The translations under genes and the position numbers were made by a program. Of a stretch of DNA of 7,197 nucleotides, positions 1 through 7,197 are shown piece by piece. The notes beneath the pieces were generated by a model, which was given only the letters and a program-made list of their open reading frames with translations, was not told the origin of the DNA and ran no database searches. Numbering within the stretch: position 1 is the stretch's first letter; every line of letters begins with the position of its first letter. Source of the stretch: an uncultured archaeon (GTDB lineage: Archaea > Iainarchaeota > Iainarchaeia > Iainarchaeales > 0-14-0-20-30-16); assembly GCA_964565125.1 (NCBI GenBank), contig CAZMCX010000038.1:1-7197 (forward strand), read 5' to 3'.

Positions 1-2
1 AG

Positions 3-71
3 AGAAGAATAGATGATGTCTTTGGCAAGGAAAAGGAAAAGCAGGAAGGCCTTGGCAAGTGGTTTGGCTAG
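3..71 (+). CDS. 3' end of a CDS truncated by the left window edge; product unknown
   Basis: Frame 3 is open from the window edge to TAG at 69-71 (..RRIDDVFGKEKEKQEGLGKWFG*). The other two plus frames hit stops within 15 nt. Only 22 codons are visible. The Lys/Glu-rich linker followed by a short amphipathic G-L-G-K-W-F-G tail resembles C-terminal membrane-targeting tails of MinD-type ATPases, but that is not diagnostic. This stretch is visibly more G+C-rich than the rest of the window. Confidence 0.25.
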   Translation, partial: RRIDDVFGKEKEKQEGLGKWFG

Positions 72-110
72 TTTCTTTTAATGTATGTTATGTCTAATTG
101 CTCGGCGACC

Positions 111-377
111 TTAAAGAAATTTTGCCCTAAATATTAATCCAATTGTAACTACTGTTCCAACTGTTAATAAAAATGCCATTAGTGGATTTGTAAGATAAAA
201 ACATAAAAACCAATTTGATATGCCTGGTAATTTACATACAGTTTCTTGAGCAACCCCTGAAACAATTTCCCCAAAAACATTTGAAAGTATAACATATATA
301 ATTGCACCAATAATAAATTCAATCATAGCAGGAATTTTTAATATAAACTCAATTATTTCTTCAATCATAAGATGCAA
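111..377 (-). CDS. small hydrophobic (predicted 2-3 TM) membrane protein, function unknown
   Basis: An 88-codon ORF is long for AT-rich DNA, where stops are frequent. The translation has long hydrophobic runs (IIEFILKIPAMIEFIIGAIIYVILSNVF; WFLCFYLTNPLMAFLLTVGTVVTIGLIF). The codon at 377 is TTG; the first ATG is at 368 (85 aa). No clear Shine-Dalgarno precedes either start. I recognise no family. Confidence 0.5.
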   Translation of the reverse strand: MHLMIEEIIEFILKIPAMIEFIIGAIIYVILSNVFGEIVSGVAQETVCKLPGISNWFLCFYLTNPLMAFLLTVGTVVTIGLIFRAKFL

Positions 378-618
378 TAAATCATTTACTAATAAAAAAT
401 TATCGGTTGCCTCGCAAATTTCTTTTAGTTGTCACTTTTGTTAAATGCTATAAAACAGAAAAAGAAAATATGAAATGCTTCGCGACTAAACCTAACCATG
501 ATTTAACGGCTCATTTCATTCGCCCAAATTTTTTCTTAGTGACGACAGGGGGCTTAGTCCTTCGGACATATAGTCTACTTCGCAGAAATTTTATAATTTG
601 AAATAAGAAAACTTAATT
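378..618 (-). other. 240-bp non-coding spacer with repeated TCGC-N0-2-AAATTT motif and potential RNA structure (candidate regulatory region or small RNA)
   Basis: No convincing ORF on either strand. The plus-strand motif TCGC followed by AAATTT occurs at 412-421, 520-531 and 580-592, and a related CTTCGC at 478-483. A small hairpin GTCC-TTC-GGAC lies at 557-567. Segments 484-492 and 551-559 are complementary over 9 bp. The single imperfect position is a G-U wobble if the minus strand is transcribed and an A-C mismatch if the plus strand is. This helix and the 557-567 hairpin share positions 557-559, so they are mutually exclusive. A sigma70-like TTGCGA (417-412), a 17-nt spacer and TATTAG (394-389) on the minus strand could drive the 111-377 ORF. 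Confidence 0.3.
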
Positions 619-1122
619 TTAAAATTTCCAACCTTCTACTCTGCACATTTCAATAATGTTTATACATTCAATATTATACTCTTTACATACAAATGGAATC
701 TTTACTTTATTTCCTCTTAACTTTTCTTCTGTTACTATAATTCTACCTTTTACTGTTTGAAATAATGTTTTTTGTGGGGCGCTTCCCATTTCAACCGCTA
801 AAGCAATAACAAAAGGATCTGCCGCTGCAGTTTCATTGTCAGATTTTGCTAATGACGGATACTTCCTAAGAATTTCTCTGACAATTTCCATTTGTCTTTC
901 ATCTAGTTTCTTAAAAAATTTTTTCTGCTTTTTTGCCCATTTCTTTAATGAGTCATCCATCAAAGAAATCTCCTTAAGAACTTCTCTATGAGAAATTAAT
1001 TGCCCTTTACTAATTAAAGTTTCAACATTTTTCCAAAGCGTAGGAAAAACATCTATTGGGTAACGCCTATTTAACTCTATAAGTGAGCTTGAGTCAATCA
1101 CATAGTAGTTTATGGTCGTCAT
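619..1122 (-). CDS. DUF4411-family PIN-like protein (putative nuclease effector/toxin partner of the upstream ImmA/IrrE-type gene)
   Basis: 167-aa ORF. Its ATG at 1122-1120 overlaps the upstream TGA in an ATGA junction. It has an N-terminal hydrophobic strand ending in Asp (YYVIDSSSLIEL), a central AADPFVIALAV segment, and a C-terminal IIVTEEK...KIPFVCKEY segment. This motif order matches what I recall of DUF4411 (PIN-like fold). That family typically lies immediately downstream of COG2856 peptidase genes, as it does here. Confidence 0.8.
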   Translation of the reverse strand: MTTINYYVIDSSSLIELNRRYPIDVFPTLWKNVETLISKGQLISHREVLKEISLMDDSLKKWAKKQKKFFKKLDERQMEIVREILRKYPSLAKSDNETAAADPFVIALAVEMGSAPQKTLFQTVKGRIIVTEEKLRGNKVKIPFVCKEYNIECINIIEMCRVEGWKF

Positions 1123-2282
1123 TTTTTAGCCTTACTTATTACTTTATCTAAATTCTTTGCTTTGATTGAAAGATAATCTAATGCATCGCTGTGCGTGATA
1201 AAACCTTTATCAACATTATTAACAACAAGAGAAACAAATTTCTGCCCTCTCTCGCTTAGGCACTGTTTGTCTGCTGTCGGCCTAAATCCGCCTTTTTTCT
1301 CTGCTTTTTCTTTTGGTTTTAGAATTTCTGGTTTATATCTTTCAAGAACTGCATCATATTGTTGTTTTGAAATAAAATTTAATTTTGACATATTGTAAAG
1401 AAGCATTGCTTTGCTTACTTTGAATGCTCTTGAAAGCTTGTTTAATGTTTTTGTTTCTATTATAACCTCTTTATTTTTACTAAACTCTGCTTTTGCTAAC
1501 ATATCTGGAAGCAAAAAAGCTGATGAGAACTCATTACACCACTTTTCAACACCAGCAACATTTTTAATAAATAAAGTATTTTCAGGCATACTAACTCCAC
1601 TTTCATTTAGGAGAACATGCCCAACCTCATGCATAAGTGTAAATATTCTCGCTTCAATCAGGTCTTTTGAATTAACAACAATAACAGCAGAGGAATCATC
1701 AACTAAAGTAAATCCTCTTGCGTCTTCCACTGGCATAGGTATTTGGAAAACAATTATGTTTTTGTCCTCAATAATATCTCGTAAAAAATTAAAAACCTCA
1801 TAGGATGTTTTGAGTTTCTTTTGTGTTCCTTCATCAAACTTGAATTCTGCCCTGTATTTTTCAGCTATTTCTTTAGGATTTTCTGATAATTTTATCGTTG
1901 GGATTGCTTTAACTAAACTTGTGTTAAGGTTTTCTGATAATTCTTTGCTTATTTTTTGAAGTCTCCTTGCTCTTCTTATTGCTAATATTGTTTTTTTATC
2001 AAATTTTCCTTCTTTCTCTGGAAGCATTCTATAATCTTTAGGAAGTGGCTTTTCTTTAGGTACTTCAGATAAGAAGAATACAGTAAGCGGTCTCTTGACG
2101 ATTTTGGCTAAATCTTCTAATTGCTTTAAAGTTGGTTTTGTCTCTCTATTGAGCCAACCATTAAGGATATTTTGGCTTATTTTCAGTTTTTTAGTTATTT
2201 CTTCTTCGTTCCAACCCGAACTACCAATAACCCACTTCAAAATTTCGGGTTTGACTTCAACAGTTAATGTTTTTCGTGGCAT
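1119..2282 (-). CDS. XRE-type helix-turn-helix fused to ImmA/IrrE-family (COG2856, Peptidase_M78) zinc metallopeptidase
   Basis: The N-terminus (..ITKKLKISQNILNGWLNRETKPTLKQLEDLAKIVKRPLTVFF) fits the XRE HTH pattern seen at the front of COG2856 proteins. An HExxH zinc motif, HEVGH, is encoded at 1617-1631 in the context FTLMHEVGHVLL. The ORF track extends to a TTG at 2297. I prefer the ATG at 2282-2280, which sits 1 nt after the hsdS stop and 7 nt downstream of GAAGGT (387 aa). Confidence 0.85.
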   Translation of the reverse strand: MPRKTLTVEVKPEILKWVIGSSGWNEEEITKKLKISQNILNGWLNRETKPTLKQLEDLAKIVKRPLTVFFLSEVPKEKPLPKDYRMLPEKEGKFDKKTILAIRRARRLQKISKELSENLNTSLVKAIPTIKLSENPKEIAEKYRAEFKFDEGTQKKLKTSYEVFNFLRDIIEDKNIIVFQIPMPVEDARGFTLVDDSSAVIVVNSKDLIEARIFTLMHEVGHVLLNESGVSMPENTLFIKNVAGVEKWCNEFSSAFLLPDMLAKAEFSKNKEVIIETKTLNKLSRAFKVSKAMLLYNMSKLNFISKQQYDAVLERYKPEILKPKEKAEKKGGFRPTADKQCLSERGQKFVSLVVNNVDKGFITHSDALDYLSIKAKNLDKVISKAKK

Positions 2283-2283
2283 T

Positions 2284-3675
2284 TTACTTACCTTCAATTA
2301 ATTTTTCAACTTCTTGTTTTGCTTTTTCCAATTCTTCTTTTGCTTCTTTCTGCAACTGCTCTGCTTTTTGCATTCGCTTTTTCACTTCTTCAGCGATTTT
2401 ATTTTGAACAGCAAGAAAGGGGAGAGGGATTTTAATGGCTTCTGTTGTTTCTCTAATTATCCCCATGATTGTCCCACCCGTAATATCTCTATTTATTTGC
2501 ATTTGACCTAATTGTGATTTAAGAATTGAAAATACGAAGTATGGATTTGCTTCTTGTTTAACTCTCATTAAAAAGACATGTTCATTTATGTTTACTTCTT
2601 CAAAAGGATAATCTTCAGGAACAATCCCTATTTTCCCCGTTGTTGCCCCATCTTTTACTATAATTATATCTTTTCTCTGAACTTTACTTTTTAATTGTTT
2701 TTTATGAAATTCCATTGGTATAAACTTTAAGTCGCTTGTGGCAATTGTTCCGTCCCTTAAAACATGCTCACCACCCAAACTTGGCACACCTTCGCTAATT
2801 TGTCTTACACCACCTTTTGGTCTTTGTCCGCTTTCTAATTTTTCAGCAATATATTTCAACTCCTTAACCTCAAACTTCCCTTTCTTTATAGCTTTCTCAA
2901 CTTCTTTAAACTTCGGCTGGTAATAATAAGAGTCTGCCCTTTTGTTCTGGACGACTTCATCAGAATTAACTATATAAACCATTTTATCTTGTAATTCAGG
3001 CAGTTTTATCCCCAATTCATTAAGAACATGATTATTTATTGAGTCTAAGAGTTTCTCGGCTTCAGATTCTTTGAATCGTTTAAGAGAATATGCTTTGTCC
3101 ATTAATGCGACGATTTTATCTTGTATTTCTAAAGGTGGGAGAGGGATTCGTATATTTTTAATTGCAGGAATCGTAATATTTCCTTGTAAACCTCCTGTTT
3201 TAGAACGAGTTGTTTGTAGTTTACCTAATCTACTATTTAAAAATAAACTTATATATTTGGGATTGATATTTTTATCTTCTTTTAATCTAAACCGAATCAT
3301 AAAAGAGCCAAAAGCAAATTTATCTGCTTCTTTAGGCACTCTTGCAACTACTCCGATAGTCCCACTTCTAGAAATTAAAAAATCACCCTCATTTACATAA
3401 TCAGAATCCATCAATTCTGATTTTTTAGCATAAACTAAGTTATCTAATTTTACTTTGTTTTCTTGTAGATTTTGGATTCTTAAAAAGGGAATTTCGCCTT
3501 TAGGATAGGCTTTTACAGAAGCACCATAATTAATTTTCTCGATTAAATCTCCTAGTTTTAATGTTTTCCACTTAGATTTTTCAAGATTTTTGATTAACCA
3601 AAATTCAGGTCTGTAAAAATGAGGGTCTATCCTATTCTCAACTTCATCAGCATAAATTGTAAAACATTCGGTCAT
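2284..3675 (-). CDS. hsdS: restriction-modification specificity subunit (HsdS-like, two target-recognition domains)
   Basis: 463 aa with the duplicated HsdS layout. TRD1 starts ..VENRIDPHFYRPEF and TRD2 starts ..NKRADSYYYQPKF. Each TRD is followed by a conserved spacer helix (IRIPLPPLEIQDKIVALMDKA.. and IKIPLPFLAVQNKIAEEVKKR.. plus a coiled-coil tail). AGGAG lies 8 nt upstream of the ATG at 3675, and the gap to the hsdM stop is 3 nt. Confidence 0.9.
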   Translation of the reverse strand: MTECFTIYADEVENRIDPHFYRPEFWLIKNLEKSKWKTLKLGDLIEKINYGASVKAYPKGEIPFLRIQNLQENKVKLDNLVYAKKSELMDSDYVNEGDFLISRSGTIGVVARVPKEADKFAFGSFMIRFRLKEDKNINPKYISLFLNSRLGKLQTTRSKTGGLQGNITIPAIKNIRIPLPPLEIQDKIVALMDKAYSLKRFKESEAEKLLDSINNHVLNELGIKLPELQDKMVYIVNSDEVVQNKRADSYYYQPKFKEVEKAIKKGKFEVKELKYIAEKLESGQRPKGGVRQISEGVPSLGGEHVLRDGTIATSDLKFIPMEFHKKQLKSKVQRKDIIIVKDGATTGKIGIVPEDYPFEEVNINEHVFLMRVKQEANPYFVFSILKSQLGQMQINRDITGGTIMGIIRETTEAIKIPLPFLAVQNKIAEEVKKRMQKAEQLQKEAKEELEKAKQEVEKLIEGK

Positions 3676-3678
3676 AGT

Positions 3679-5451
3679 TTATACTCCTGTATACGTTTTA
3701 GGATTTCTTAAAAAATTTTTCCATTCCCCTAACATATTAGGTAAATCATTAACGTCTGGTCTTCCAGTTGCGTCATAGCCAATATGTTTGGTAATAGCCA
3801 TAAAGATAGGATAATTACTTGCTTTCTCTCCTTCCCTTTTCTTCTGTAAAAATAATAATGATGCTTTAACACCTGCACCAGAGGATACAAATGCCAACTG
3901 TGGCAGAGAGACAACTGCTAATATTTTTGCATTTTTATTAATAAAATCTCTCACATATTGAAGTGAAGAGTTGGTTAATATTCCATCGGGTAAAACTATG
4001 CCCATTTTTCCACCAGATTTTAATAAATCTAGACATCTCTCAATAAATAAAATTTCAGTTCTTTGTGCTTTTCTATCCTTTCCTAATTCAAAATTATTTA
4101 AGACTTCTTCATCTTTTATAACTGCACCAAAAGGCGGGTTTGTAAGTAAAACGTCATACTTATTTGGTTTAATCTTTTTTGCAGGGTCAAAATTTTTATA
4201 ATTGGTTAAGGCGTTATTACATTCAATATTGCTATGTCCATCTTCATGGATAACCATATCCATCATAGCAACACGGGCAATTCTATCATTGATTTCAATT
4301 CCAAAAATCTGTTTATGTGAAAAATCCCAATTTAATCTGTCAATTGTTTCTTTATCTTCTTTATATTTTTCAGTAACTTTATTGAGAACATGTCTCATTG
4401 AATAAAGCAAAAATCCGCCACTACCACAAGCAGGGTCAATTAAATAATCGTCTTCGTCTGGGTCAATAACTTCAACCATAAACTCTACAATTTGTCTTGG
4501 TGTGAAATATTGTCCATACTCGCCTCTAAACAATTTTCCTAAAAAGTTTTCAAATGCTCTGCCCTTTGCATCTAAATCTGTTGTTCTCAAAGAAATATCC
4601 TGTAGATGTTCAACAATTCTAAAAATCATTGTGTCTGGCAGTTCTAATTTTGCCTTGAAAACTTCAGAATTTTTAGATTGGACAAATTCATATCTTTCTT
4701 TTACTCTTTTTGCTACATTTTTTGGTTCTTCGTATGTTCCAATTTGGAATTCATAATATTGTCCATGAGGTGTGAATCTTTCATCATATAATTTTGTGAT
4801 AAGCAATTTACTTATTTCATCAAAAGCGACAGCAGGATCTCTTTTCCCACCTTCCCAAATCTCATCATGGCAAAGTTGAAATTTATTACTCAATTCATTA
4901 AAATTAGCTTTTCTTAAATCCCATTCTGGATCACCTCTTTTATATCTATATTTAGGCTCTTTGCCATATTTTATAGGAATATCAGCTATTCTATATTTTT
5001 CTAATTTTTCAATTGTAGAAGGATGTTTTTCTAAATTATAAGCTAACCTTTCATTATCACATACCACCCACAAATATTTTGCATTCAATAAATTTGCATT
5101 ACCTAGCCCTTCTCTTTTCGCTTCTTCTATATCTTTTTTTGTAGCATTTGCTTTTGTTTCAACAACAATAAAAACAATTTCCTTTTCGTCGTCTTCATAA
5201 ATGACTATATCTGCTGGTAGTTTTGGTTCTCTTCTTGGCGGATAAACTTCTGTATTTATTCTTTTTTCTGGATATTTATATTTTTCAATTAACTCAAAGT
5301 AAGATCTTGCACGTATTGGCTCTTCTGGATCCTTAAAATTATATGACTTTTTTACTGTCTTGTATGTTATTTTACCGTCCCTTACAATAAATAACCCTTG
5401 TTTCTCACCGAGTGCTATTATTTCCTCTGTTAGTTTGTATTCTTTTGGCAT
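3679..5451 (-). CDS. hsdM: gamma-class N6-adenine DNA methyltransferase (HsdM / N6_Mtase-like) with an N-terminal PD-(D/E)xK, HSDR_N-like nuclease-fold domain
   Basis: The MTase motifs appear in gamma order: GQYFTPR, then motif I DPACGSGGF (4411-4437), then motif IV NPPF (4129-4140). The N-terminal ~180 aa is extra compared with a plain HsdM. It carries LPAD(85)IVIY...IVFIVVE(102)TK(104) at 5152-5211, a textbook PD...ExK arrangement as in HSDR_N. Residue numbers follow the 594-aa track ORF. That ORF starts at a GTG at 5463. The ATG at 5451-5449 lies 1 nt after the upstream stop and 8 nt downstream of GGTGG, so I prefer it (590 aa). Confidence 0.9.
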   Translation of the reverse strand: MPKEYKLTEEIIALGEKQGLFIVRDGKITYKTVKKSYNFKDPEEPIRARSYFELIEKYKYPEKRINTEVYPPRREPKLPADIVIYEDDEKEIVFIVVETKANATKKDIEEAKREGLGNANLLNAKYLWVVCDNERLAYNLEKHPSTIEKLEKYRIADIPIKYGKEPKYRYKRGDPEWDLRKANFNELSNKFQLCHDEIWEGGKRDPAVAFDEISKLLITKLYDERFTPHGQYYEFQIGTYEEPKNVAKRVKERYEFVQSKNSEVFKAKLELPDTMIFRIVEHLQDISLRTTDLDAKGRAFENFLGKLFRGEYGQYFTPRQIVEFMVEVIDPDEDDYLIDPACGSGGFLLYSMRHVLNKVTEKYKEDKETIDRLNWDFSHKQIFGIEINDRIARVAMMDMVIHEDGHSNIECNNALTNYKNFDPAKKIKPNKYDVLLTNPPFGAVIKDEEVLNNFELGKDRKAQRTEILFIERCLDLLKSGGKMGIVLPDGILTNSSLQYVRDFINKNAKILAVVSLPQLAFVSSGAGVKASLLFLQKKREGEKASNYPIFMAITKHIGYDATGRPDVNDLPNMLGEWKNFLRNPKTYTGV

Positions 5452-5452
5452 T

Positions 5453-6292
5453 TTATTCCCCACCTTCTGGGATTTTTTGATTTAACCATGGCATTTTCTC
5501 TTTAGGAGTAACTGCGTACCATCCTGTATTAATATTTCCTTTAATGGCTTGCTTAATTAATTCACAAGATTTTTTGATTGCCCCTATTACTGTTCGGAGG
5601 TCTTTTTCATTTTTAATTTTTATTTCACCCCAGTTTTCATGAAATTTAATATTTTTTACTCCTTCTATTTTTTGTTGATTTGTATAGATATATAAAACCA
5701 TCAATTTTTTTCTAAATTTTAAATATACAAAATTCTTTTCTGGAGAATAGTAGGTTATTGCAGTTTTTGCATAATGGTGATAAATTTCTTCATTTATTTT
5801 TAGAATAGCTTTGTCTAATTTTAAGAATAAATCTTGAATATTTTTAGAAACATTCTTTCTTTTTATATGATGTTCTAAATCATACTTACTCTCTTCTTTT
5901 TTTACTTCTTCTTCACCGAAGGGTTCTGGTTCCATATTCTTGATTTCTTCTTTTAATTCCAACACAGGAACGGGACATTCTTTCCAATCATGCACCCAAC
6001 AAACAACTAAATCACATTTTCTTCCTTTTTTGATATCGTCTAAATGTGACTTAAAACCAGAACTATTATATTCAAACTCTATAGAAATTTTTTCCCACCC
6101 CTTTCCTGTCCTTCTTCTTGCTATGCAATCTGGGTACCCGGTTTTAATTTCTTCTACGTACATGTTGAGATCTTTAAGAATCTTTCCAAACAATAGAACC
6201 ACCCCCTGTTCATTAACGGGGCTATAGACCATCCCTCTAAAATTGATTATACTTCCAACAACAGATTTTTCTTCATATTTTTCTTCTTCCAT
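5453..6292 (-). CDS. two-domain hypothetical protein: N-terminal restriction-endonuclease-fold-like domain, acidic linker, C-terminal DUF5655-like domain
   Basis: 279 aa. AAAGGGGA lies about 7 nt upstream of the ATG at 6292, and the gap to the radC stop is 3 nt. The N-terminus reads ..VEEIKTGYPD(55)CIARR..KISIE(72)FE(74)YNSSGFK(81)SH..CDLVVCWVHDW. That places acidic and Lys residues on alternating strand-like segments, as in PD-(D/E)xK folds (inference). Residues 115-135 form a Glu/Lys-rich linker. The C-terminus (..LFLKLDKAILKINEEIYHHYAKTAITYYSPEKNFVYLKFRKKLMVLYIY..) resembles the DUF5655 pattern as I recall it. Confidence 0.7.
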   Translation of the reverse strand: MEEEKYEEKSVVGSIINFRGMVYSPVNEQGVVLLFGKILKDLNMYVEEIKTGYPDCIARRRTGKGWEKISIEFEYNSSGFKSHLDDIKKGRKCDLVVCWVHDWKECPVPVLELKEEIKNMEPEPFGEEEVKKEESKYDLEHHIKRKNVSKNIQDLFLKLDKAILKINEEIYHHYAKTAITYYSPEKNFVYLKFRKKLMVLYIYTNQQKIEGVKNIKFHENWGEIKIKNEKDLRTVIGAIKKSCELIKQAIKGNINTGWYAVTPKEKMPWLNQKIPEGGE

Positions 6293-6295
6293 TTT

Positions 6296-7015
6296 TTAAT
6301 CCCCTTTAATCAAACCTTTATCTAAAAAGCTTGTATAGTTATCATTTCCTATTATGATGTGATCTAATACCCTTAAACCAACCAAATCACAGGCTTTTAT
6401 TAACCTATTTGTTATTTCTATGTCTTCTTTTGTTGGTTCTGATTCCCCACTTGGGTGATTATGAACAAATATCAATGCTGAAGCGGATTCTCTAACCGCT
6501 TCCTTAATTACTTCTTTTGGGTCTACAATACTGCTACTTAAACTGCCCTCAGAAAGAGTTATGTCTTTGATAATCTTATTTCTTCCATCTAATAACATCA
6601 CTTTGAATATTTCTTTTTTAAAATCTCTCAAATAAGCCTTATAATAATCGACTACATCTTCGTTTGTTCTAATTCTTTTTCTAATCCCTGATTTTTGTCT
6701 TAGAAATCTTTTTCCTATTTCTAAAGCTGCCTTTATTTCAGCAGCTTTTAACATACCCACGCCCTTTATTTTGCATAACTCTGAAATACTGACAGAATCT
6801 AAATCTCTAAAACTACCAAATTCCATTTTTAATTTTCTAGCTAGATCAATGGCACTACTTTTTTCTTCACTTTTTCCTTCGCCAGTTCTTAAAATAATAG
6901 CCAATAGTTCAGTATCAGAGAGTTTATCCGGCCCATATTTTATCAAACGTTCTCTTGGTCTTTCATCTTCAGGCCACTCTTTAATTGTAGGTTTATATTT
7001 ACCTTCTTTTTTCAT
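6296..7015 (-). CDS. radC: RadC-family protein (COG2003; N-terminal helix-hairpin-helix region plus C-terminal JAB/MPN metalloenzyme domain)
   Basis: 239 aa. The N-terminus ERPRERL..G...LSDTELLAIILRTG....A..LARKL...FGS...L....ISELCKIKGVG..KA..IKAALEIGKR is the canonical full-length RadC N-terminus. The JAMM-type motif HNHPSG is encoded at 6446-6463, followed by EPTKEDIEITNRL and VLDHIII. AAGGAG lies 10 nt upstream of the ATG at 7015. Confidence 0.9.
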   Translation of the reverse strand: MKKEGKYKPTIKEWPEDERPRERLIKYGPDKLSDTELLAIILRTGEGKSEEKSSAIDLARKLKMEFGSFRDLDSVSISELCKIKGVGMLKAAEIKAALEIGKRFLRQKSGIRKRIRTNEDVVDYYKAYLRDFKKEIFKVMLLDGRNKIIKDITLSEGSLSSSIVDPKEVIKEAVRESASALIFVHNHPSGESEPTKEDIEITNRLIKACDLVGLRVLDHIIIGNDNYTSFLDKGLIKGD

Positions 7016-7151
7016 TTTTCTCTAACTCCTTTTCAACAAAAATCTCAAACTGTCTTGAAATAACCAATCCCTTCTTTTTACAGTATTCTTTATAAGAATT
7101 ATAGAGTTTTTCATCAACCTTTAGAGTTATATTTTTGCTTCCCATAGTCAT
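6999..7151 (-). CDS. small ribbon-helix-helix (CopG/Arc-like) DNA-binding protein; candidate operon controller or antitoxin-like regulator
   Basis: Not in the supplied ORF track, presumably because it is below the length cutoff. Hand translation from the ATG at 7151-7149 to the TAA at 7001-6999 gives 50 aa: MTMGSKNITLKVDEKLYNSYKEYCKKKGLVISRQFEIFVEKELEKNEKRR. The pattern is beta-strand (ITLKVD), helix, a Gly turn, then a second helix. This closely parallels CopG-type RHH proteins. It overlaps the radC start by 17 nt. No obvious SD is present, so the transcript may be leaderless or have a short leader. Confidence 0.6.
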   Translation of the reverse strand: MTMGSKNITLKVDEKLYNSYKEYCKKKGLVISRQFEIFVEKELEKNEKRR

Positions 7152-7160
7152 CTAATAATA

Positions 7161-7186
7161 AATATTTACACATCTTTATAAATATT
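7161..7186 (-). promoter_or_regulatory. candidate operator/promoter element upstream of the first gene of the cluster
   Basis: An 8-bp perfect inverted repeat, AATATTTA (7161-7168) and TAAATATT (7179-7186), is separated by 10 nt and lies 10-35 nt upstream of the RHH start. A palindromic TTTATAAA (7175-7182) overlaps the right arm and ends 23 nt upstream of the ATG. It could be a TATA-like or -10-like element. AT-rich palindromes of this size are not rare in such DNA, and the window ends at 7197, so the context is incomplete. Confidence 0.3.
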
Positions 7187-7197
7187 ACTGAAAGACG

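Follow-up and report, generated by a model that had tools for sequence, protein, structure and literature searches.

A compact archaeal nuclease-methyltransferase and specificity subunit that probably form a Type IIB-like restriction-modification enzyme without a motor subunit

The stretch of DNA analyzed here (the window) comprises 7,197 nucleotides (nt) from an uncultured archaeon of the Iainarchaeota (GenBank assembly GCA_964565125.1, contig CAZMCX010000038.1, forward-strand positions 1 to 7,197) and encodes, on the minus strand, a fused nuclease-methyltransferase (hereafter RM, for restriction-modification; 3679-5451) and, next to it, a specificity subunit with two target recognition domains (TRDs) (hereafter S; 2284-3675). 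Together, these two genes probably specify a self-contained restriction-modification enzyme of the Type IIB kind that operates without a motor subunit, and the locus is most likely an archaeal, compact member of the already known Type IIB-like class of 'RM + S' enzymes. A first-pass annotation of the window had proposed precisely such a fusion of a nuclease with a methyltransferase, accompanied by a separate two-TRD S and thus Type IIB-like rather than classical Type I; the homology to the Type IIB enzyme BsaXI, the catalytic tetrad, the predicted fold and the S gene all favor this proposal.

The top sequence match of the RM protein in the PDB is the RM subunit of BsaXI (8w0p; E = 3.7e-34, query residues 28-546; here and below, RM residues follow the 594-amino-acid (aa) numbering of the first-pass annotation, which starts from GTG 5463 and includes four extra residues). 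The BsaXI match spans the nuclease, the connector and the methyltransferase, whereas the chains of HsdM, the Type I methyltransferase subunit, match the methyltransferase part only. In BsaXI, alanine substitution of any one of the residues E73, D90, E105 and K107 abolishes cleavage (PMC11997821), and E72, E102 and K104 of the archaeal protein pair exactly with E73, E105 and K107 in the alignment. Among 115 homologues with 53-99% identity to RM, D85 and E102 are present in all 115 sequences, and E72 and K104 in 114 each. Given this strict conservation of the catalytic residues, the suggestion that the nuclease-fold domain is inactive or has a sensing role finds no support.

An AlphaFold2 model of residues 5-195 (predicted local distance difference test (pLDDT) score of 87) displays an alpha-beta-beta-beta-alpha-beta nuclease core in which strand 1 carries E72, strand 3 contains both E102 and K104, and D85 is located where strand 2 begins. 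When the N-terminal model was compared with the PDB using Foldseek, BsaXI again ranked first (E = 4.9e-5, template modeling (TM) score 0.64), followed by Cas4, the Type IIG enzyme BpuSI, NucC and a fragment of HsdR, the restriction subunit of Type I systems. The motifs P-A-D85 (5209-5217) and V-V-E102-T-K104 (5152-5166) are located where they had been placed. The bare D...ExK motif by itself is not significant in this protein, which is rich in lysine and glutamate: when the N-terminal 190 residues are shuffled, the pattern D-x(10-30)-[DE]-x-K turns up in 97% of the sequences, and P-x-D...E-x-K in 17%. The nuclease assignment exceeds chance because of the profile, homology, conservation and fold results rather than because of the motif; in particular, the Pfam family HSDR_N_2 matches RM residues 46-155 with 36.2 bits (E = 6.9e-9; cutoff 25).

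The methyltransferase part of RM has a Pfam N6_Mtase match of 138 bits over residues 298-545, and the motifs DPACGSGGF (residues 343-351; 4411-4437) and NPPF (residues 442-445; 4129-4140), both already reported in the first pass, are nearly invariant across the family. The region ahead of the methyltransferase core had been estimated at about 180 residues; it actually comprises about 300, which include the nuclease domain, ending near residue 160, and some 110 residues that form a helical connector. An HsdM_N domain was not detected in the RM protein. The open reading frame (ORF) at 3679-5463 on the minus strand, with its GTG start and 594 aa, is real, but the start itself requires revision: GTG 5463 overlaps the end of the upstream gene, and ATG 5451, which yields a product of 590 aa, is the more likely start. 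This ATG sits 1 nt past the stop codon of the upstream gene, and public gene calls on four independent contigs give the 590-aa product.

The partner gene encodes a protein with two Methylase_S stretches detectable with Pfam, and its best match in the PDB is HsdS, the specificity subunit, of EcoKI. An internal repeat in this gene (D3; 2394-2431 and 3111-3148) marks the junction of each TRD with its conserved helix.

To examine the genomic context of this family, we assembled 86 loci (687 kb in total), of which 80 are metagenomic loci containing relatives of the nuclease domain and six came from look-ups of the exact proteins. The family is abundant: relatives of the nuclease domain are encoded in at least 475 metagenome stretches. 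Its RM proteins come in three forms, namely, those of about 590-600 aa with a separate S gene next to them, those of about 820-850 aa with a single fused TRD, and those of about 1060 aa with a complete fused S (RMS). Fusion to one or two TRDs is seen in close homologues of the archaeal RM protein (53-72% identity). For the short class, the S gene lies directly downstream in all 11 loci that include downstream sequence. All three layouts, that is, RM+S, RM with one TRD and fused RMS, are those of known Type IIB and Type IIG enzymes (PMC11997821, PMC6158711).

No HsdR-type helicase was found either on the 18-kb source contig or in the 85 other related loci, where the 45 neighboring ORFs of at least 450 aa were scanned and 10 of the largest were then inspected one by one. 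These large neighbors include recombinases, SMC and AAA ATPases, a superfamily 1 (SF1) helicase, Argonaute (Piwi-domain) proteins, GmrSD, a Toprim-domain protein, glycosidase-like and BACON-domain proteins, and a second methylase. Look-ups of relatives on long contigs agree with this result, and an hsdR gene is also absent beside the bacterial relatives on annotated replicons. The self-sufficiency of the pair, which had been put forward as the reason why hsdR is missing, is supported by the lack of HsdR across all these loci together with the conserved catalytic residues.

The context of several relatives merits separate mention. In Aerococcus tenax (CP127381; L175, 8673-14948), a relative labeled 'type I M' has no adjacent hsdR and adjoins several fragments of S genes in both orientations along with a tyrosine recombinase/integrase, an arrangement that looks like a phase-variable specificity shufflon. 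Several fused RMS genes (L160/L170, 5356-11311; L009, 7101-12335) are followed by genes for a protein of about 620 aa, which is UvrD-like in L009, and for an SMC-like ATPase of 1030-1255 aa; these two proteins may represent another, neighboring defense module.

Comparison with experimentally characterized systems places the archaeal pair closest to BsaXI (PDB 8w0p, 8w2p, 8w2q), a bacterial enzyme with the same order of nuclease, connector and gamma-class methyltransferase and with a separate two-TRD S. The connector of BsaXI encompasses residues 193-348, and that of the archaeal RM protein occupies the equivalent position. However, the two RM proteins share only about 21% identity and differ substantially in size, 916 aa in BsaXI versus 590 aa here. 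In BsaXI, a knob interrupts the methyltransferase domain, and a paddle at the C-terminus contributes to cleavage. The archaeal protein has neither of these elements: its residue 546 pairs with both residue 626 and residue 739 of BsaXI, leaving the knob (BsaXI 626-742) without a counterpart, and the protein stops about 140 residues before the paddle. Lacking the knob and the paddle, the RM protein is therefore grouped with the smaller 'RM + S' enzymes, including BcgI, which is devoid of both (PMC11997821). In BcgI, the archetypal Type IIB enzyme with the composition A2B, the A subunit combines a PD...ExK nuclease with a methyltransferase, the B subunit resembles HsdS, and a motor is lacking (PMC3592470); the subunit logic is the same, the likeness being architectural only and drawn from the description of BcgI rather than from its sequence. 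BcgI needs two sites and higher-order assemblies. Single-chain Type IIB and IIG enzymes (of the AloI/TstI/CjeI type, as well as BpuSI and MmeI) share the nuclease-connector-methyltransferase module, and differ in that the specificity module of the archaeal enzyme is a separate two-TRD polypeptide.

Classical Type I systems (EcoKI, EcoR124I) have several parts in common with the archaeal pair: both possess a two-TRD HsdS with conserved helical regions, the methyltransferase core of RM is homologous to HsdM, and the nuclease domain of RM belongs to the same Pfam family as the N-terminus of HsdR. The difference is that classical Type I systems have HsdR, a nuclease joined to a superfamily 2 (SF2) motor, whereas here HsdR was not found and the nuclease is fused to the methyltransferase. 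MADS, the methylation-associated defense system, was considered as well. MADS is an eight-gene system (mad1-mad8) in which the M and S proteins act together with other proteins. The MAD2 profile aligns over RM residues 44-568, and MAD2 appears to share the nuclease-methyltransferase layout, but the NCBIfam scores are 316.8 bits against a cutoff of 720 for MAD2 and 152 against a cutoff of 400 for MAD5. The other mad genes gave no significant match among the window proteins, and none were found on the source contig. Membership in MADS was accordingly rejected on both scores and gene content.

By analogy with the better-studied relatives, the stoichiometry, cofactors and cutting geometry of the archaeal enzyme can be proposed. 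Two RM chains and one S subunit would assemble into an (RM)2S complex, as in BsaXI and BcgI, with the two TRDs of S reading a bipartite target. The gamma-class methyltransferase would use S-adenosylmethionine to methylate one adenine in each half-site and so mark the host DNA as self. On unmethylated DNA, the N-terminal PD-(D/E)xK domains, with the putative active site formed by E72, D85, E102 and K104, would cleave at a short and constant distance from the site, and this cleavage would proceed without ATP-driven translocation. The cuts would most likely flank the site, and cleavage may require two sites or additional protomers, as is the case with BcgI.

The six substantial genes of the window are all encoded by the minus strand in a tight array (Table 1), with consecutive genes separated by 1-3 nt except for the DUF4411 gene, which shares 4 nt with the 3' end of the IrrE gene. 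Four public metagenomic contigs carry the exact proteins of the window, the longest of which (L001, 18 kb; the source contig) also encodes aIF2-beta and the large subunit of the archaeal DNA polymerase D, which identifies the host as an archaeon; its G+C content is about 31%. Scans of the window for tRNAs, Rfam families and repeats yielded nothing except the internal repeat in the S gene.

Table 1. Genes and domains of the window
Feature	Position	Strand	Comment
RadC (helix-hairpin-helix (HhH) + JAB)	6296-7015	-	first gene of the cluster; NCBIfam RadC, 247 bits against a cutoff of 180
279-aa protein, uncharacterized N-domain + DUF5655	5453-6292	-	variable insertion in the RadC-RM interval
RM gene: nuclease, helical connector and N6-adenine methyltransferase	3679-5451	-	590 aa from ATG 5451 (more likely start)
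Predicted PD-(D/E)xK nuclease domain, N-terminus of RM	4999-5328	-	Pfam HSDR_N_2, residues 46-155
Catalytic tetrad: E72 (5248-5250), D85 (5209-5211), E102 (5158-5160), K104 (5152-5154)	5152-5250	-	BsaXI alignment and conservation
Multi-helical connector of RM, residues ~185-297	4573-4911	-	aligned to BsaXI residues ~205-340
Gamma-class N6-adenine methyltransferase domain	3829-4572	-	N6_Mtase; motif I at 4411-4437, motif IV at 4129-4140
HsdS-like S subunit, two TRDs	2284-3675	-	starts 3 nt past the RM stop codon
Helix-turn-helix (HTH)-IrrE/ImmA peptidase	1119-2282	-	starts 1 nt past the S stop codon
DUF4411 PIN-like protein	619-1122	-	4-nt overlap with the 3' end of the IrrE/ImmA gene

Two of the neighboring genes had been suggested as the seat of the cleavage activity, namely, those for the 279-aa protein and for the DUF4411 protein, but neither is a conserved partner of RM, so that this proposal is unsupported. 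The 279-aa protein belongs to a family of about 1,000 members and accompanies the RM gene in few loci only. As an obligate nuclease partner, it was rejected: among 80 genome loci with this gene, an N6-methyltransferase was present within 10 kb in only about 10. The N-domain of this protein (residues ~25-120) has a predicted alpha-beta-beta-beta-alpha-beta fold with invariant E47, P54-D55 and E72-F-E74, and may be a new PD-(D/E)xK-like variant; the model of the 279-aa protein (pLDDT 85) has no significant structural match in the PDB, the sequence profile of this protein has no PDB match either, and no Pfam family covers the N-domain. The same N-domain is also joined to other C-termini, for example, in Planctomycetota. 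We found no relevant literature on DUF5655. More generally, the interval between RadC and RM is occupied by unrelated genes in different loci (L101, L102, L104, L105, L140, L170). Besides the DUF5655 protein, their products are Phd/YefM-like antitoxins, a YhcG-like protein and another two nuclease-like proteins, each about 390 aa long.

The combination of HTH-IrrE and DUF4411 is a recognized predicted module of the toxin-antitoxin type with three components (PMC5499597). Among the 86 loci, it is present on the source contig only, and on these two grounds it was rejected as the effector of the restriction system. The module appears to be co-transcribed with the RM and S genes; it adjoins the restriction-modification system without belonging to it.

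Besides S, the sole conserved neighbor of RM is RadC. Upstream sequence of 900 bp or more is available for 58 loci, and in 23 of these (about 40%) RadC is encoded directly upstream of RM; this association involves all three RM layouts, and the gap between the two genes is often 1-20 nt, or the genes overlap. The association was also examined in reverse, starting from six RadC homologues with 55-78% identity that were selected solely by the length of their contigs. Four of the six head an operon with an N6-methyltransferase, that is, RM+S in two cases (L181, L183), RM+S+OLD in one (L176) and SNF2+RM in one (L179). The metal-site (JAMM) residues of RadC, E135, H185, H187 and D198, are invariant or nearly so among 141 sequences. 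RadC is predicted to process nucleic acids, and fusions to the anti-restriction protein ArdC have been described (PMC3239186, PMC5512222). A published description of an operonic linkage between RadC and restriction-modification genes was not found in the literature. It is conceivable, if somewhat doubtful at this point, that this JAB/HhH protein of the RadC family is a functional accessory of motor-less nuclease-methylases, for example, a controller, a restriction-alleviating protease or a DNA-processing factor.

Two of the RadC-headed operons deserve a closer description. In L176 (5001-10966), a single operon encompasses RadC, a 769-aa RM, S and an OLD-family ATPase/Toprim nuclease; loss of the nuclease domain in this RM protein was considered and rejected, as it retains a BsaXI-like D-x14-E-L-K motif and a weak HSDR_N_2 match. 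In L179/L180 (5001-10708), from a metagenome-assembled genome of Marinimicrobia, the operon consists of genes for an HTH protein, RadC, a 1029-aa SNF2/ResIII helicase and an 840-aa nuclease-methylase, and looks like a motor-containing variant of the RadC-RM module, similar to a split Type ISP system or DISARM-like.

Several observations weigh against the interpretation of RM and S as a self-contained Type IIB-like enzyme. D85 is offset by two residues from BsaXI D90 in sequence alignments; it corresponds to D90 judging from the match of the hydrophobic strand that follows (D-IVIY versus D-VLVK), with a hairpin that is two residues longer in the archaeal protein. The BsaXI knob and paddle are absent, and the BsaXI mechanism is not transferable wholesale, because the paddle residues D816 and E823, which are needed for cleavage by BsaXI, are missing here. 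Cutting on both sides of the site, the property that defines Type IIB, would be the most likely outcome given the subunit composition. The closest curated NCBIfam models are those of MADS, albeit both sub-threshold. Furthermore, the host genome is known as the 18-kb metagenomic contig alone, and hsdR could sit elsewhere; and, among the relatives, the one in L176 has an OLD-family nuclease past S, and in L179 an SNF2 helicase gene separates RadC from RM.

The lack of the paddle, a contributor to cleavage in BsaXI, could also indicate that the enzyme, while capable of restriction by itself, falls outside Type IIB proper, that is, that it cuts on one side, nicks the DNA or cuts at a variable distance, and so would resemble a Type IIG or IIS enzyme with a detached S. 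The relatives of about 830 aa with a single fused TRD indeed have the Type IIG layout, and BpuSI is among the best fold matches of the nuclease domain; nevertheless, we deem this possibility unlikely, given that a two-TRD S recruiting two RM chains would place one nuclease domain at either flank of a bipartite site, as happens in BsaXI and BcgI, the characterized enzymes composed of the same subunits. Even less likely, in our assessment, is that RM and S are the recognition and self-marking core of a larger, MADS-like or RadC-dependent system, in which efficient restriction would need RadC, the 279-aa protein or partners encoded elsewhere. The identity of the best NCBIfam models, the frequent position of RadC directly before RM and at the head of N6-methyltransferase operons, and the existence of relatives with SNF2 or OLD partners are all compatible with such a system. 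However, the MAD2 and MAD5 scores are far under the equivalog cutoffs and the other mad genes are absent, about 60% of the related loci with upstream sequence have no RadC, the 279-aa protein is seldom found near an N6-methyltransferase, and the IrrE/DUF4411 module is confined to the source contig, while the strictly conserved nuclease site of RM points to RM itself as the effector.

The public annotations of these proteins read 'type I restriction enzyme M protein', the best PADLOC models are MTase_I, and the source genome is represented by a single 18-kb contig, all of which would fit a methylation-only pair or a classical Type I M.S pair, with an N-terminal domain that is inactive or only binds DNA and with any HsdR encoded elsewhere. 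This explanation appears highly improbable: the four catalytic residues are essentially invariant, the homology to BsaXI continues through the nuclease domain, and HsdR was not found in any of the 86 loci, though hsdR normally adjoins hsdM and hsdS. A motor-less enzyme of the Type IIB kind, composed of RM and S, remains the explanation that we favor.

The RM/S pair itself is most likely an ordinary enzyme of a known class, and the part most worth follow-up is the coupling with RadC: should RadC prove to be an accessory of these enzymes, a protein with a long-disputed role would gain a concrete, testable function. The broader implications stem from the abundance of the RM family, which is usually mislabeled as 'type I restriction enzyme M protein' or 'N-6 DNA methylase'. 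Read correctly, each locus of this family is a complete restriction system rather than an orphan methylase or a nonfunctional Type I system, a correction that alters censuses of defense systems, especially, in archaea and uncultured lineages. Type IIB enzymes whose S subunits can be swapped make useful reagents, for instance, in 2b-RAD, and illustrate in nature the evolutionary transition that has been proposed to lead from Type I to Type II systems; small archaeal versions that lack the knob and the paddle could help show how the two double-strand breaks arise.

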